From the NCBI GenBank assembly GCA_046331705.1, contig JAXLQJ010000054.1:1-48429 (forward strand): 48,429 nucleotides of DNA, read 5' to 3'. A program made the translations under genes and the position numbers. Numbering within the stretch: position 1 is the first letter of the stretch; every line of letters starts with the position of its first letter. This DNA comes from a bacterium. Its GTDB lineage: Bacteria; JADJOY01. The notes beneath the pieces are model-generated. The model was not told the DNA's origin. It saw nothing but the letters and a program-made list of their open reading frames with translations, and did no database searches. This document shows positions 29,798 to 48,429 of this stretch, piece after piece.

Positions 29798-29877
29798 ATC
29801 GAACGCCAGCCTGGGGCCCCGCAATACGCCGCAATCGAGACACGCCTGCCCCACGTGCGGTCCGTTTCAGCGTCCTG
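29798..29877 (-). other. Degenerate attC abutting an IS110 left-end remnant
   Basis: Ends TTTCAGCGTCCTG, matching CTGCAGCGTCTTG at 43448-43460; ATCGAAC core at 29798. Confidence 0.4.
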
Positions 29878-30021
29878 ACTCCATGAAGGCCCCCTCGGGA
29901 ACATCCCACCCCACGTTGGACGCTGACGTTGTCCACGAAGCCACGCGGGGAAGCCCATCGCGATTCTACAACGGCCATCGCGACCACTACTGTGCATGGA
30001 CCTGAACGCCCGCTCGATCTA
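29878..30021 (+). mobile_element. Truncated, decayed copy of the left end and first codons of the IS110 at 43461
   Basis: ACTCCATGAAGGCCCCCTCGGGAACATCCCACCCC...CGATTCTAC aligns with 43461-43604. Confidence 0.85.
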
Positions 30022-38885: not shown

Positions 38886-39026
38886 GCCCGACGTGGCGCT
38901 CGGCCTGGCTCGCTGTGGCCGCTACTCGGGCGCCACCGGCGATGTCGATCCTCGCTCATCGCCTCGCCCGCGCGAGCTATCCCATGCTCACCCGCGGTGA
39001 TCGGCAGGTGCAGCGCGATGTTACGC
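38886..39026 (-). other. attC site containing a 59-nt IS110 transposase fragment
   Basis: Minus strand GCGTAAC-ATCGCG-CTGCACCTG...CAGGCCGAGCGCCAC-GTCGGGC; 38942-39000 matches 44493-44551 at 50/59 nt. Confidence 0.65.
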
Positions 39027-41857: not shown

Positions 41858-42930
41858 ATGAGCAATTAACCACGAAGTCCTTCGGATCGAGCGCAGGCCG
41901 CCTCGCTTCCGCCCTCACCGCCGGCCTCGACGTCGGCGACCGCCACTCGACGATGTGCTTCATCGACGCCGCCGGCGAAACGGTCGAGCATGCGCGGGTG
42001 CGCACCACTCCGAGGCGCTCGAGGGCATTCGGCCACCGCGCACCGCGCTGCGCATCGCCCTCGAGGTGAGTACCCACTCTCGATGGATCCGTCGGCACGT
42101 GGCTGCTCGTCGAGGCTCGGTCACGAGGTGTTCGTCGCGAATCCACGTCGGGTCCGAGCGATCTACGAGAGCGACACGAAGACCGACAGCTCGGATGCCG
42201 AGATGCTCGCGCGACTCGCGCGGGTCGACCCGAAGCTTTTGTGTCCCGTCCGACATCGCCGCGAGGACCGAGCCCGGGCGCTCGCCGTGGTGCGCAGTCG
42301 CGACGGGCTCGTCCGCGCGCACGCTCTGCTCATCAACCATCCGCGGTGCCATCAAGCCGGTCGGCGGTCGCGTGAAGCACTGTTCGTCCGAGAGCTTCGC
42401 ACGCCAGGCGCCGGAGCAGATTCCCGCGGAGCTGCAGGCGGTGCGCTGGCCCGTCATCGAGCAGATCGGCCACCCTGACCCACGCCCGTCCGAGAAGTTC
42501 GATCGGCAGATCGAGCAGCTCTGAGCAATTCGACGCACAGCGACTGCGGGAGATTCAAGCGTTGGTCCCCGTGACCGCGCTCACCTTCGTTTTGACCGTC
42601 GACGACCCGGCGCGGTTCCAGAACGCCCGCACGATCGGACCTATCTCGGACTTTGCCCCCGGCCGAAAACAAAGCGGCCGGGACGATCCGCAGCTCGGCA
42701 TCATGGCGCTGGGCGGCTCATGCCTGCGCAAGCTCGTCGTCACCTGCGCGCAGCACGCTAGGCCATTCGGCAAAGATGGCGCCTTGCGCCGCTGGGGACT
42801 CCAGCGAGCAGGCAGCAGCGATCGGATCGCCAAGAAGAAAGCGGTCGTTGGCGTCGCCCGGCGACTGACCGTCGTGATGCTGCACCTGTGGGTGAGTGGC
42901 GAAACCTACCGGCCGTTTCCGACGCCCGCG
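41858..42930 (+). pseudogene. Frameshifted IS110 DEDD recombinase
   Basis: Fragments GLDVGDRHS, IALEV, VANPRR...KTDSSDAEMLARLAR, PVTALTFVLTVDDPARF, QSG and KKKAVVGVARRL in different frames. Confidence 0.9.
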
Positions 42931-43089
42931 CCACCCGCGCGACCGCCTTCCCCGGAAAAAGACCGTCGAGAAGAAGGAGGAAGGCGGCATAGCCGACGTC
43001 AGAGAAACGAACACCAGATGGAACCGATGGAGCAACGGAACGCCGCACGGCGCAGGTCGCGCGATCTCGGCGACCAGCACCGGCCGCCT

Positions 43090-43230
43090 CGTCCGGGTGA
43101 CTGCGAGCTGAGCAGGCCCTCCGGGGCAGACCACCAACAGATGGCGGCACCAGGGCGAGTCGGACTCCAACCTGCACCGAGCTCACCGAACGAGCTCGCG
43201 GTACGAATGAGCGTGGCGTCCGGTGGTTCG
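43090..43230 (+). ncRNA. Putative bridge/seekRNA core of element B
   Basis: Two stem-internal loop-hairpin modules sharing GACT...GCA[hairpin]...TGGCG; loop 1 carries GCTGAGC and CAAC (target matches), loop 2 carries GAATGAG (element left-end match). Confidence 0.65.
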
Positions 43231-43541
43231 CCCGCCGCCTTCGATCGTCGGCCCCGCGACGGTCGGCCTTCCCGACTGCTCTTCGAGAAACCGTTCATCT
43301 ACCCGCGAATACAAGGCTCAAGAACGGGCACCGCCGCCTCAACAAGGACGTGAACTTGAAAGGGAGGAGAGCCTTCTCATGGAAAGAGCTCAGCAGCGGC
43401 CCCAGACTACCGCGAGGTCCAGACGAGCGCATCCCGGGTGCCGTCTGCTGCAGCGTCTTGACTCTATGAAGGCCCCCTCCGGAACGTCCCACCCCATGTG
43501 GGACGCTGGTGTTGCCAACAACCCCAACCGGAGGAGACCCA

Positions 43542-44585
43542 ATGCGATTCTACACCGGACAGCATCAGCACTACTGCGGCATCGACCTCCACGCTCGGTC
43601 GATGTACATCTGCGTCCTCGACCAGGCCGGCGAAGTCCGTCTTCACCGCAATTTCCCGACGACACCCGTCGCCTTCCTCGAGGCCGTCGCACCCTTCCGC
43701 GAGGGACTCGTCGTCGGCATCGAGTGCATCTTCACCTGGTACTGGCTCGCCGACCTCTGCGCCGCCGAGAAAATCCCCTTCGTTCTCGGCCACGCCCTCT
43801 ACATGAAGGCGATCCACGGCGGGAAGAGCAAGAACGACAAGATCGATAGCCTCAAGATCGCGACCCTTCTCCGCGGTGGAACGATTGCGCAAGCCTACGT
43901 TTACCCTCCCCAGATGCGAGCGACCCGCGATCTCCTGCGCCGGCGAACCCACCTGGTGCGTCGGCGCGCTGAGCTGATCGCCCACGCGCAGAACACCCAC
44001 CACCAGTACAACCTGCCCGCGCCGGGAGCACGGCTGGCGTACAATTCGAACCACGTCGGCGTCGCCGAAGCCTTCGCCGATCCGACCGTGCGTCGCAGCG
44101 TCGAGGTCGACCTCGAGCTCGCGCGGATTCTCGACAAGCGCATCACCGAGCTCGAGCTCTACCTGGTGCGCCAAGCGAAGGAGCACGACCCGAAGGCCTT
44201 CCACCTGCTGCGCTCGATCCCGGGCGTCGGCAAAGTACTCGCGCTCACCATCGTCTATGAGATCCACACCATCGAGCGCTTTCCAACCGTGCAGGACTTC
44301 GCGTCGTACTGCCGGCTGGTGAAGTGCAGCCGAGAGTCCGCCGGAAAGGTTTACGGTACCGGCGGAGCCAGGATGGGAAACGTCCACCTCAAGTGGGCCT
44401 ACTCGGAGGCAGCGGCGCTCTTTCTGCCCCGCAACCCCGAGGGTCAGCAGCTGCGCGACCGGCTGGCGCGCAAACACGGCAAGGGGAAAGCCATGTCGAT
44501 CCTTGCCCATCGGCTCGGGCGAGCGAGCTATCACATGCTCCGCCGCGGTGAGCCCTTCGATCGGAGGCGCTTTATGAACGGCTGA
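43542..44585 (+). CDS. IS110 DEDD recombinase/transposase (347 aa)
   Basis: GIDLH, GIEC, KNDKID (D-E-D-D), LRSIPGVG, RESAGK (Ser), AHRLGRASYHML; GGAGGAG RBS. Confidence 0.96.
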   Translation: MRFYTGQHQHYCGIDLHARSMYICVLDQAGEVRLHRNFPTTPVAFLEAVAPFREGLVVGIECIFTWYWLADLCAAEKIPFVLGHALYMKAIHGGKSKNDKIDSLKIATLLRGGTIAQAYVYPPQMRATRDLLRRRTHLVRRRAELIAHAQNTHHQYNLPAPGARLAYNSNHVGVAEAFADPTVRRSVEVDLELARILDKRITELELYLVRQAKEHDPKAFHLLRSIPGVGKVLALTIVYEIHTIERFPTVQDFASYCRLVKCSRESAGKVYGTGGARMGNVHLKWAYSEAAALFLPRNPEGQQLRDRLARKHGKGKAMSILAHRLGRASYHMLRRGEPFDRRRFMNG

Positions 44586-44597
44586 CATCATGGGGAG

Positions 44598-44990
44598 GCG
44601 CGGGTGAGCTCCGTGTTGAACTGGGATCCGTCAGGGCCGAGCTCGTCATCGACGTCCAGCGACATCTCCGCCACGAGCGGTACGCGAATGTCATGAGACA
44701 CGTGCCCGGAAAACCGTTCGTTTTGACTAGCCACCCGCGCTTGCCCCGCCCTTCATCGAACCGTACCGAGACTATGGTCTTTCGCTGGCTCTGCTCCTCC
44801 CCGAGCCCGCAACGAACTGGCTTCGAGCCTGACCTTTTGATTGGGACGGGAGAGGACACGAAATGGTTTCTAGGCCGCCGCGTGTGCGATGCGCGGCAAC
44901 CGCCGCGAGGGGGTTGAGCCTCGATAGGTGTTTGGTGCAGCGCCACGTTCGTGGTGCGAGCGCCGTACCTGAAACAAAGTCAGAGTCGCG
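44598..44990 (+). ncRNA. Putative bridge/seekRNA of element A
   Basis: Stems GCGCGGGTG/CACCCGCGC (44598-44740) and TCCTCCCCG/CGGGAGAGGA (44795-44856), each enclosing GAGCYC...GAACTGG...TTTTGAYTRG. Confidence 0.6.
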
Positions 44991-45096
44991 TCAAGCGCCA
45001 GGCCAGGTCTCGAGAGAGGAATTGCGGTGAGAACAAAACCGCTAGGGAGAGGTGTGCGCTTGACGGACGGGGGCCTTATAGGAGTTCGGCTCAGCG

Positions 45097-45579
45097 TCAA
45101 AACCAGCCTTTGTGCGTGAAGCACCCACAGGTTGGGATGAATGCATGTGTCACAACGAATCCACACAGGCACCAAGAAGTCGAGTCGAAGTGATTATCGA
45201 CTGCGACCAATGTCCGATCCTTGAACTCAAGCACTGTCTCTCGATATCCGACAGGTAGTACGAGCGGTACGGGTACGACGACAACGAGTGCGAGAAGGCC
45301 AGCGAACGCCATGTCCTGTTCGTAATACCACCAGACAGTGTGATCGTGGTCCTCGACACGGTCGGGGTCACCCCATAGCGCTCGGACGATTTCTTCTGTG
45401 TAAGGTTCTGGCGGGTCCCGGGGCGGGGTGCTCGACAACCACGACACACGCCCCCGCTCTTCCGCTAGATAGACAAACGAGCCGCGTTGGACGGCATCCC
45501 CGAGGATCCCGCCGCCCATGCATCCGGCGGTGATCTGGACAATTGCCAGGAGCGCGGCTGTGCGGAACCGGCGATTCAT
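45097..45579 (-). CDS. Hypothetical lipoprotein cassette gene (BamE/SmpA-like segment)
   Basis: Lipobox TAGC; EIVRALWGDPD...WWYY; stop 6 nt before R'' GCCGAAC. Confidence 0.75.
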   Translation of the reverse strand: MNRRFRTAALLAIVQITAGCMGGGILGDAVQRGSFVYLAEERGRVSWLSSTPPRDPPEPYTEEIVRALWGDPDRVEDHDHTVWWYYEQDMAFAGLLALVVVVPVPLVLPVGYRETVLEFKDRTLVAVDNHFDSTSWCLCGFVVTHAFIPTCGCFTHKGWF

Positions 45580-45959: not shown

Positions 45960-46763
45960 CTATTTCTTCCCCTTCGCGGATGCGTCACCGCCCATCGGTG
46001 CGCCCGCATTGCGTTTCTTGGCTACCTCGGTCCGATAGCTCGGCACGTCGAATTCGAGGATCGTCGAGTTGTGGACGATCCGGTCGATGGCAGCGACGGT
46101 GGCCATCGGGTTGTGGAAGATCTGGTCCCACTGGCTGAAGACCAGGTTGCTGGTGACGATCAGCGAGCGACGCTCGTAGCGCTCTCCCATCAGGGTGAAG
46201 AGCACGTCGGTGTCCTCGGCGCCCTGGTGGACGTAGCCCAGGTCGTCGAGGATCAGCACGTCGAAGCGGTCGAGCTTCTTGAGCTCGCGCGGCAGACGGA
46301 GCTCGCGCTTCGCGAGCAGAAGCTGCTGCACGAGGCGGTAGGTCGCGGTGAAGAGCACCGCGTGCCCGTGCTCGACGAGCCGGTGGCCCAGCGCTGCCAT
46401 GGCGTGCGTCTTGCCCGTGCCGGGCAGGCCGAACGCGAGCACGTTCTCCCCGCGTTCGACGAAGTCACCCTTCGCGAGATCGTCGAGCTGTTGGCGCAGC
46501 TTCACCGGCAGACGCTGGAGATCGAAGCTCGACCAGGTCTTGCCGATGGGCAGCTTCGATTCGGCACGCAGCCGTTCAACGCGACGTTGGGCGCGGTCGG
46601 TGGCTTCCTGCTCGAGAACGTCGCCCAGGGTGGGCAGCGCGTCGGCATGGCCGGCTCGGGTGAATCGAGGCACGGCCTCGGCGCCCACGGTGGGTAGATG
46701 GAACGAACGGCACAGCACGGCAATGCGGGCGTTGACGTCCACCGCTTCGGCCCTCGGCTTCAT
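45960..46763 (-). CDS. istB: IS21 helper AAA+ ATPase
   Basis: GLPGTGKT, LILDDLGY, RYERRSLIVTSN, AAIDRIVH. Confidence 0.96.
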   Translation of the reverse strand: MKPRAEAVDVNARIAVLCRSFHLPTVGAEAVPRFTRAGHADALPTLGDVLEQEATDRAQRRVERLRAESKLPIGKTWSSFDLQRLPVKLRQQLDDLAKGDFVERGENVLAFGLPGTGKTHAMAALGHRLVEHGHAVLFTATYRLVQQLLLAKRELRLPRELKKLDRFDVLILDDLGYVHQGAEDTDVLFTLMGERYERRSLIVTSNLVFSQWDQIFHNPMATVAAIDRIVHNSTILEFDVPSYRTEVAKKRNAGAPMGGDASAKGKK

Positions 46764-48241
46764 CGCTCACCTCCGACGAGGAACGCGTCGTACACGTGGA
46801 GATCGGGCTCCGGGATCGCAATCTCGGGCACCGAGGGCTTCGGCGGTGCGACTCGCTCTCGGACGTCGGTGTAGGAGAAGGGCTTCCCCTCGGCGAGCAG
46901 CTCCGTCAGCGCTCGCTCGACGCTGCTCTCCATCGTGCTCGCGGCCAGGTGCAGCACCCGCACGTACTCGACGTCGGCGCGTTCGCCGCGGCACGCAACG
47001 AGCGCATCGTAGGTCCGCCGGAAGACCTCGCTCGGGAAGAGCCCTTCGCGATAGCGGTACCGGGCGAACGCACCGGGCTTGCGCACCAACGACCAGATCA
47101 CGTGCCGGTAGTCGATCCGGTACTCCTCCGCGCCGCGCAGGCGTGGCATGCGCTCGACGGGCTGACCGCCGTAGAGAATCTCGACCCAGTCGGGATGCAA
47201 GCGCGCCTCGACCTCGTGACCGATCAGCCGCGACGGGACCGAGTACGTGCGGCCGCCCACTCGAACTGTGCTCCAGCGGTGCACCTGGACGCGGTACGTC
47301 GAGTACGCCGGCACCGGCGATGGCGGAAGCGGGCGTAGATGCGGCCGCTCCTCGGCGAGCCGCGAGTCGAAGCGGCGATTGCGGCGCTCCACGACGGCTT
47401 CGACGAAGGCTTCGTATGCAGCGAGGTCCACGAAATCACGGCTGCCGCGGATCACGAGCGCTTGTCGGAGCGCGTCTTTGAGGCGGCGGTTGGTCTGCTC
47501 GACGACGCCGTTCTCGTTCGACTCACCGGGGCGAATCCGAGTGGACTCGATCCCGTAGTGGTCGAGGACCGAGGCGAAGCGCTCGTTGAGGACGCGTCCA
47601 CCCTCATGCTTCAGGTCGTGGGTCGCCGCCGAGAGATTGTCCGTGCGGGCGACGGCGGTCACCCCACCGAGCCGCCAGAACGCCGCCTGCAGCCCGGCGA
47701 CGAGCGCCTCGAAGGTCTCGCCGAACACGACCTTCGCCCAAGTCCACCCGCTGAAGCTCAGCACCAGCACGAACAGCAGATGGTCGAGAGGCTCGCCGGC
47801 GATCGTCACACCGAGCTCGCGCGCATGCGTGAAGTCGAGCTGCGCCTCGCGTCCCGGCGGGTGTTGCTGGGGGAAGAACACCTCCCGCTCACCGCCGTGC
47901 AGCGCACGCCAATCGCGGAGGCGGCGCTGCAGCGTGCGGAGCTGACCCGCCGGGAACTGGCCCGGGTGACGATCCTCGAGCCAGTCGAAGATCGTGGTGG
48001 CCTGCAACACGCCGGCTTCGTCCGTCTGGAGCAGCGGCACGATCTCGCTCGCCCAGACCGACTCGAATGGATCGGACCGCGTGCGCCACAGGCGTGGCTG
48101 CCGCGCTTCCGAGGGCAACGGTCCCCGCTCCCACTCTCGGGCCGTACGGACACTCATGCCCGCCGCGGCTGCCGCCGCTTCCTGCGTCTTTCCGTCCATG
48201 CGCTTCTGCCTCAGCAGGCGCACCTGGGCATCCGTGACCAT
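46760..48241 (-). CDS. istA: IS21 DDE transposase
   Basis: PGREAQLDFT, RTDNLSAA, ENGVVE, YSVPSRLIG; ATGA overlap with istB. Confidence 0.96.
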   Translation of the reverse strand: MVTDAQVRLLRQKRMDGKTQEAAAAAAGMSVRTAREWERGPLPSEARQPRLWRTRSDPFESVWASEIVPLLQTDEAGVLQATTIFDWLEDRHPGQFPAGQLRTLQRRLRDWRALHGGEREVFFPQQHPPGREAQLDFTHARELGVTIAGEPLDHLLFVLVLSFSGWTWAKVVFGETFEALVAGLQAAFWRLGGVTAVARTDNLSAATHDLKHEGGRVLNERFASVLDHYGIESTRIRPGESNENGVVEQTNRRLKDALRQALVIRGSRDFVDLAAYEAFVEAVVERRNRRFDSRLAEERPHLRPLPPSPVPAYSTYRVQVHRWSTVRVGGRTYSVPSRLIGHEVEARLHPDWVEILYGGQPVERMPRLRGAEEYRIDYRHVIWSLVRKPGAFARYRYREGLFPSEVFRRTYDALVACRGERADVEYVRVLHLAASTMESSVERALTELLAEGKPFSYTDVRERVAPPKPSVPEIAIPEPDLHVYDAFLVGGER

Positions 48242-48429
48242 CGGCTGGGGTCCCTCCCGGACCGCAGCCAACGTCAACCGACCACCTCAGGCGAGACCGG
48301 CAGATCTAATCGTCGTCGACCGGCAGAAGTAATTGTCGCTGATCACCGGCCGTTTGGGTGGTCCAGATCGTCGGACCGGGCACCGCGCAGCTATGGAGAT
48401 TGAATAGGGGTCTGGAGGTTCTCGGACCC

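Follow-up and report, generated by a model that had tools for sequence, protein, structure and literature searches.

A probable attC-targeting IS1111-group insertion sequence with a long, modular RNA region predicted to read both target and element ends

The stretch of DNA analysed here, in the following called the window, is the 48,429-nt contig JAXLQJ010000054.1 of a bacterial genome (assembly GCA_046331705.1, lineage JADJOY01). Close to its right-hand end lies an insertion sequence (IS) of 1624 bp, spanning positions 43461-45084, which interrupts an integron attC site. The element carries an intact transposase gene with 81-83 nt of non-coding sequence 5′ of the ATG and 499 nt 3′ of the stop codon, and it is bordered by imperfect inverted repeats of 18 bp. 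It can equivalently be written as 43459-45082; the ends 43461/45084 are a valid writing in which the 2-nt junction dinucleotide is assigned to the right end. We consider it highly probable that this is a complete, attC-targeting insertion sequence of the IS1111 group (IS110 family), which combines a DEDD/Ser recombinase with an RNA made from about 400 structured nucleotides downstream of the gene.

The transposase matches the Pfam profiles PF01548 (DEDD_Tnp_IS110, E 2.5e-15) and PF02371 (Transposase_20, E 9.3e-17) and scores 205 bits against the NCBIfam model NF033542, 'IS110 family RNA-guided transposase', for which the cut-off is 140. Its C-terminal domain aligns with the solved structures of IS621 (E 3.9e-12) and ISCro4 (E 9.5e-11), and the alignment with IS621 together with motif position places the catalytic residues at D15, E61, D99, D102 and S266, the serine lying within a RESAG motif that corresponds to the ESG of IS621. 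Relatives were collected by protein-anchored scans, in which 79 genomic and 80 metagenomic loci with 58-70% protein identity, distributed over many phyla, were identified. All 159 loci have a near full-length gene, and their transposases align across residues 1-345 of the 347 present in the window; with nhmmer and MAFFT, left ends could be placed in 144 and right ends in 115 cases. The alignment of the non-coding region comprises 115 distinct homologous regions, the window copy included, while the junction counts are based on 135 distinct left and 108 distinct right flanks (loci L020-L180).

A long non-coding region 3′ of tnp and subterminal inverted repeats are described as the marks of the IS1111 group (PMC11187229, PMC11208160), and the element was assigned to this group because it has both. 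The same distribution of non-coding sequence around the gene is found in its relatives. The repeats, for which a length of 7-17 bp or more is expected, sit five bases inside the left end and one to three bases inside the right end, leaving short terminal extensions, and the left and right repeat columns covary as complements among the homologs (mutual information 1.3, 94% complementary, with two more pairs at 91-99%). An initial annotation of the window had described an intact IS110-family recombinase with a DEDD domain and a catalytic serine; this assignment holds on the basis of Pfam, NCBIfam and the catalytic residues and can be narrowed to the IS1111 group. All its coordinates are correct in the sequence, including those of the shared motifs GAACTGG (44618, 44814), TTTTGACTAG (44721) and TTTTGATTGG (44835). 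The nearest described IS could not be named, as plasmid and protein searches returned just 'IS110 family transposase' or 'transposase'; among the matches listed (85 of 171), the nearest plasmid-borne relatives are at most 65% identical and there is no Klebsiella record.

On its left side the element is bordered by the larger part of the interrupted attC site. This flank belongs to a repeat of ~70 bp for which BLAST gave 14 further hits elsewhere in the genome, their ends all falling at 43452-43460. The genome contains three integron integrases above the curated TIGR02249 cut-off, and attC repeats are found beside each of them. For an intact copy of the attC, folding yields an imperfect hairpin in which single bases are left unpaired (-25.7 kcal/mol, z = -1.96). 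Seven of the 13 attC copies examined read GCAGCG-NNN-AGTT(G/C/A), two have AGCT, one has AGTC and three are different. In the homologs, 103 of the 108 distinct right flanks start with GTT and 58 fit GTTRRRY; in addition, nine uninterrupted attC sites across seven homolog loci follow a GC-NN-GTTRRRY-like pattern. The dinucleotide at the left junction is TG in 132/135 and GG in 3/135 cases, and that at the right junction TG in 88, GG in 14, AG in 5 and GA in 1 of 108. From the junctions and the uninterrupted sites taken together it follows that insertion takes place just 5′ of NG-TT. The cassette open reading frames (ORFs) near one of the integrases (C59) share its direction and the attC copies there are opposite to the window plus strand, while in the window itself a minus-strand cassette ORF (45097-45579) terminates just short of the right flank. 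The cassette sense is therefore the minus strand, and the IS occupies the R″ (5′) end of the attC in antisense orientation. A fixed site near the attC 5′ end, antisense to cassette transcription, is also the location described for ISPa21 and ISPst6 (PMC3001079). That the element targets attC, as had been proposed initially, is thus confirmed by the repeat family beside the integron integrases and by the GTT of the right flank in relatives.

Other ways of placing the crossover were considered and rejected. GA as core dinucleotide is found at 1/108 right junctions of relatives, and TT does not fit the uninterrupted attC sites. The right flank GTTRRRY cannot be the R′ end with the integrase crossover point either, since the cassette orientation makes it the complement of R″. 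The donor-type base is always on the left junction, and the first base at the right junction varies. The three integron integrase regions are C59:21614-27061, C23:85657-91321 and C44:2647-4420. In C59 the cassette ORFs lie 3′ of the integrase gene and are co-directional with it, which is not the usual divergent layout; the attC and integrase positions in C23 fit the layout of C59, the comparison for C23 and C44 being one of positions only. The C23 cassette array also holds a fragment of the non-coding region of the IS. The minus-strand ORF at 45097-45579 begins with MNRRFRTAALLAIVQITAGC, which by eye resembles a lipoprotein signal.

The non-coding region downstream of the transposase gene is, as judged from sequence comparison, a long, structured and modular RNA in which two domains are supported by covariation. 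A length of ~500 nt is the norm in the clade, and the window copy is therefore not unusually long among its relatives. The conserved blocks comprise two (T/G)AACTGG, two TTTGATTGG, GTTTCTAGG, ATAGGTGTTTGGTGCAG, GAAAC.AAGTCAGAG and CTTGAC, and the GAACTGG and TTTTGAYTRG motifs are among the best-conserved columns (80-99%). These repeated motifs mark two predicted internal loops that are similar to each other. In domain 1, the closing stem shows compensatory changes in 14/14 pairs, and over the whole domain 91.7% of the cells pair compared to 72.8% after shuffling, a value reached by 0/500 shuffles, and to 40-50% with slid partners. For the 37 pairs of domain 2 the corresponding figures are 92.9%, 85.5% (maximum 86.5 in 200 shuffles) and 35-47%, and double-sided changes were counted in 322 cells against a shuffled mean of 99. 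An example from the stem of module 2 is the pair 44808-44843 (UA 61, CG 29, GC 10). A Vibrio plasmid relative with 51% protein identity has the same RNA blocks, with guides that follow its own ends. No Rfam family matched at gathering scores across the window, and a permissive search of 44550-45120 returned a snoRNA at chance level (E = 0.93). A DNA search with the non-coding region in six genomes of the same family gave two short foreign matches only. The initial annotation had called this a long multi-module structured 3′ region and suggested a comparison of homologous 3′ regions as a check; covariation across the 115 regions upholds the description.

Four segments that are single-stranded in this fold match the DNA around the junctions (Table 1). 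Each was compared with its own flank or end and with those of other elements (300 shuffles), giving z = 3.9 and 4.5 for the right and left target guides and z = 5.7 and 5.3 for the right and left donor guides. Unpaired segments matching both target strands and the element's own ends are what characterizes bridge RNAs and seekRNAs. In the window, the right target guide can form 10 contiguous pairs (7 Watson-Crick and 3 G-U) with the reconstructed target, and its seven core-adjacent positions pair in 74-96% of homologs. The left target guide matches at 10/10 positions in the window, one of them via U-G, and equally at 10/10 in homolog L057; to the left of TG, five positions agree in 55-76% of cases compared to 46-67% after shuffling. 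Within the lineage of the window element, the right donor guide and the left end have undergone a matching deletion of 1 nt. The left donor guide tracks the right-end variants ATAAG, ATACG and ATGAG, matches at 11/12 positions in the window and includes one position matching in 99% versus 68% after shuffling. In both domains the segment that reads the top strand lies 5′ of the one that reads the bottom strand. The same order is described for IS1111 seekRNAs, which are encoded 3′ of tnp (PMC11187229), and the IS1111 bridge RNA is described as located in the right end with its donor-binding nucleotides in a multiloop (PMC11208160).

From these features we infer how the element might function. 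The internal loop of domain 1 would read the target, and the single-stranded joints of domain 2 would read the element's own ends, segment 44857-70 the left end and segment 44924-35 the right end. The element is likely to leave in circular form, which would bring TTGACG (45060) ahead of the left end and could thereby create a promoter for both the recombinase and the RNA. The recombinase, presumably with the RNA bound to it, would then exchange strands at the NG dinucleotide directly 5′ of TT in GTTRRRY. When the two ends were joined in a script, GACTCT came to lie 18 nt downstream of TTGACG. A junction promoter using TTGACG, an idea already present in the initial annotation, would be a reasonable assumption: CTTGAC is conserved, and a scan of the linear element (43300-45300) for promoters and terminators found none.

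Table 1. Features of the element and its attC target (window coordinates; RNA domains, stems and guides are predicted)
Feature	Position	Strand	Remarks
Larger part of interrupted attC; left target flank (LT) in IS orientation	43385-43458	-	~70-bp genome repeat
Left junction dinucleotide TG	43459-43460	+	donor-type core copy
Left subterminal inverted repeat CTATGAAGGCCCCCTCCG	43464-43481	+	inverse of 45064-45081
Transposase, RNA-guided DEDD/Ser recombinase, 347 aa	43542-44585	+	intact ORF, GGAGGAG 5′ of ATG
RNA domain 1, putative target-binding internal loop	44592-44747	+	closing stem 44592-44606 / 44732-44747
Right target guide GUUGAACUGG	44615-44624	+	antisense to top strand across insertion point CT-AG-TTCGGC
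Left target guide CGUUUUGACU	44719-44728	+	same sense as CGTCT-TG-ACT, left junction
Unconserved linker with GAGACT	44749-44787	+	mainly gaps or low conservation in 115 homologs
RNA domain 2, multi-branched, putatively donor-binding	44788-44986	+	outer stem 44788-94 / 44979-86
Module 2, hairpin with internal loop 44809-44842 repeating the target-loop motifs	44795-44856	+	stem pairs covary
Right donor guide	44857-44870	+	antisense to left end (GACTCTAT...)
Domain 2 stem GUUUC / GAAAC	44866-70 / 44971-75	+	covarying
Hairpin arm of multiloop	44872-44921	+	pair 44875-44918: CG 44, UA 30, GC 13, AU 10
Left donor guide AUAGGUGUUUGG	44924-44935	+	same sense as right end ATAGG + TG, continuing into right flank
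Hairpin arm with TGCAGCG as stem strand	44934-44964	+	pairs 44934-41 with 44948-64
TTGACG, putative -35 of circle-junction promoter	45060-45065	+	CTTGAC 90-99% conserved
Right subterminal inverted repeat CGGACGGGGGCCTTATAG	45064-45081	+	18 bp, imperfect pair with left repeat
Right junction dinucleotide AG	45083-45084	+	target-type; AGTT at same place in 7/13 attC copies examined
attC R″ core	45084-45090	-	GCCGAAC in cassette sense, GTTCGGC on plus strand

Several observations weigh against regarding the element as a complete IS with such a guide RNA. The right donor guide pairs at just 6/8 positions in the window, and the five bases at its 3′ end, GUUUC, are also part of a covarying stem with GAAAC (44971-75), so that its true extent is uncertain. 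The loop of module 2, when compared with the flanks, shows no tracking (z = 1.1 and 2.7), which leaves a second loop with no assigned role. The z-scores of the guides overstate independence because the homologs are related to each other. The -10 sequence at the joined ends is poor in the window copy, GACTCT instead of the GATACT of its relatives. The element is the sole intact copy in the assembly, five other places being truncated, deleted or chimeric, which gives no sign of recent movement in this genome. Six short contigs without any difference from the element occur in three metatranscriptome libraries (two each in X15, X16 and X17, with a depth of ~2 to 3.4), but they do not show transcription, carry-over of DNA being possible; stretches left uncovered in these libraries are equally uninformative.

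The same evidence bears on a first alternative, namely that the element is a well-preserved fossil which has kept the anatomy of an attC-targeting IS1111 element and lost its movement, in a region that serves as a graveyard of insertion sequences. We regard this as a real but minority possibility. It would be compatible with the lack of a second intact copy, the relatives in the genome being fragments with 81-93% identity, with the remnants within the window at 29855-30021 and 38939-39001, with the weak junction -10 and with the two mismatches of the right donor guide. It is further favoured by a 93% identical copy of the locus at C2:269736-270305, which includes both flanks and lacks window positions 43409-44757, an internal deletion of 1349 bp ending at AGACTA repeats. 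Because the flanks are included, this copy must have arisen by segmental duplication and not by transposition, followed by the internal deletion. A further relative at C2:265570-267198, with ~82-83% protein identity over residues 1-308, was left out as it was judged chimeric: its 3′ region consists of unrelated DNA followed by a correct right end of 34 bp. On the other hand, the element has kept an intact ORF with its catalytic residues, both of its ends and almost every RNA stem. A metagenome contig of 2851 nt also matches the right end (44924-45088) without differences over 165 nt, beyond which it has a different flank, and this suggests that the element has inserted a second time somewhere in that community. 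Among the contigs from public runs, none spans the element, none contains the circle junction and none represents the empty site of this locus. One contig departs from the left flank at 43457 into an uninterrupted attC; as it also differs from the window in other places, it was rejected as the empty site and assigned to a paralogous one.

A second alternative concerns the division of labour within the RNA. Module 2 (44795-44856) might itself be the functional target loop, on a compact, ~200-nt bridge RNA (44788-44986), with domain 1 being a free-standing, seekRNA-like target-loop RNA used in a separate step or pathway. We think this unlikely, although both loops have the AACUGG and UUGAU motifs and module 2 is nested in the donor domain, as IS621 carries its two loops on one RNA. 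A preprint on an IS110 element describes a truncated target-loop RNA that cooperates with the full bridge RNA (10.1101/2025.10.25.684509), and the 3′ side of the module 2 loop tracks the left junction weakly (z = 2.7). However, complementarity of its 5′ side to the right flank is limited to ~5 nt and shows no tracking (z = 1.1), whereas domain 1 offers 7 nt (z = 3.9), and domain 1 also fits the flanks better in single cases (L057, L055 and the window). Module 2 was likewise tried as a reader of the donor ends or the inverted repeats and rejected, as by eye the sides of its loop vary inconsistently with these. Keeping domain 1 as the target reader, we might still picture an unusually large, two-part guide RNA of ~400 nt in which the second, target-like loop acts as a second reader or docking site and permits a pathway with two RNAs or two steps, similar to the one that the preprint proposes for an IS110 element. 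The fixed TG at the left junction and the varying NG at the right one may mark the inherited strand. This picture is speculative and more probably wrong than right. The guides read the junctions as they are found after insertion, such that the same RNA might also serve as the reader for excision, a suggestion that goes with the two loops and is equally doubtful.

The initial annotation had named three other guides, TGCAGCG (44936), AGAGTC (44982) and GAGACT (44768), and it is very improbable that these fulfil the function. They are exact matches of 6-7 nt, in this copy, to the left flank, the left end and the possible circle junction, respectively, but about 0.1 such matches are expected by chance per hexamer and strand in ~500 nt, and none of the three covaries with flanks or ends in the homolog alignment. 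TGCAGCG (44936-42, equal to the target 43449-43455) is a hairpin stem strand with z = -1.6, and GGTGCAG does not change in homologs whose left flank has CTTCAT or CTCGAT. AGAGTC (44982-87) forms the 3′ side of the outer stem, where it pairs with GCUCUG (44788-93) and shows compensatory changes (pair 44789-44985, for example, UA 30 and CG 29), with z = -0.4. GAGACT (44768-73) lies in the unconserved linker and occurs in 0/114 other homologs. It is more improbable still that the protein alone selects the target and that the conserved 3′ region acts only in protein binding or at the DNA level: no RNA was directly observed here and the inverted repeats are probably protein sites, but the compensatory changes, which affect more than 50 pairs, speak for a folded RNA, single-stranded segments track flanks and ends, and the RNA of related IS1111 elements is reported to be transposase-bound and essential (PMC11187229).

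An RNA-guided IS1111 element is best compared with those already described to insert in attC. Such elements have been known since 2008-2009 (PMC11187229, PMC3001079); they include ISKpn4, ISPst6 and ISPa25, and for ISKpn4 and ISPst6 guidance by RNA is reported to have been shown experimentally (PMC11187229). The window element resembles ISPa21, ISPst6, ISKpn4 and ISPa25 in its IS1111 transposase of ~340 aa, its subterminal repeats and its long 3′ non-coding region, in the fixed insertion, antisense to the cassette, near the 5′ (R″) end of attC (as described in PMC3001079) and in a predicted target-reading RNA whose top-strand guide precedes the bottom-strand guide (as described in PMC11187229), a likeness that rests on descriptions and not on sequences and does not imply common descent. 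The structured RNA of ~400 nt is longer than the published seekRNAs, with 70-100 nt (short) or 145-170 nt (long), and than bridge RNAs with 150-250 nt. With IS621 it shares the DEDD/Ser recombinase, whose C-terminal domain aligns with E 3.9e-12, and a pair of RNA modules that read target and donor, each on both strands and overlapping at the core dinucleotide, with guides extending past the core comparable to the handshake guides. It contrasts with IS621 in that the RNA lies 3′ and not 5′ of the gene and the order of the guides is reversed. In addition, the donor guides are found in a multiloop where IS621 has an internal loop, the element has long inverted repeats and a TG/NG junction in place of CT, and there is an extra loop resembling the target loop. 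As in ISEc11, a conserved TTGAC(A) near the right end could form a circle promoter with the left end; the sole promoter seen in ISEc11 is described as the one made by the joined ends (PMC11187229). The putative -10 of the window element, GACTCT, is weaker than the GATACT of its relatives.

The window element is a well-formed, ordinary representative of a family that is known and very abundant. Though its guide-RNA region is long, it introduces no new principle. It had initially been put forward as a candidate tool for insertion into integrons, which is not new, as seekRNAs of ISKpn4 and ISPst6 are already reported to work in experiments (PMC11187229). Insertions of attC-targeting IS1111 elements disrupt attC sites and thereby freeze integron gene cassettes, and the RNA-guided recombinases of the IS110 family are under development as programmable DNA-insertion tools. 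A comparative map is useful for the IS1111-type bridge RNAs, which are less well described than that of IS621, and the present one offers a target loop, a donor multiloop, four guide segments, a second conserved loop and a junction asymmetry in more than 100 independent insertions. The attC-targeting clade to which the element belongs occurs very frequently in data from soil and sludge; a protein search scored at least 8000 candidates, all with E <= 1e-20. Half or more of the sampled words of window 43350-45200 were found in 14 DNA runs, all from sludge, wastewater or unspecified metagenomes, and the 20 runs holding words of this segment span 12 studies.

Further traces of insertion sequences surround the element. 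Directly upstream of the attC, at 41923-43353 on the plus strand, lies a second IS110-family transposase gene which is split over at least three frames, with a DEDD domain in 41990-42478 and a Transposase_20 domain in 42562-43353. Its match to the studied element amounts to just 40% over 30 aa, and it may be the one that had been termed 'element B' in the initial annotation. The remnant at 29855-30021 is a left end of ~170 bp from a related IS, 77% identical to 43438-43606 and with a broken frame; it is preceded by ...TCAGCGTCC-TG, the same type of junction. The remnant at 38939-39001 encodes 21 aa of the C-terminus of a related transposase (81% identical). Downstream of the element, at 45960-48277 on the minus strand, two overlapping ORFs of 267 and 505 aa resemble what we take to be an istB/istA pair of the IS21 type, the shorter one containing, by eye, the Walker motif GLPGTGKT.

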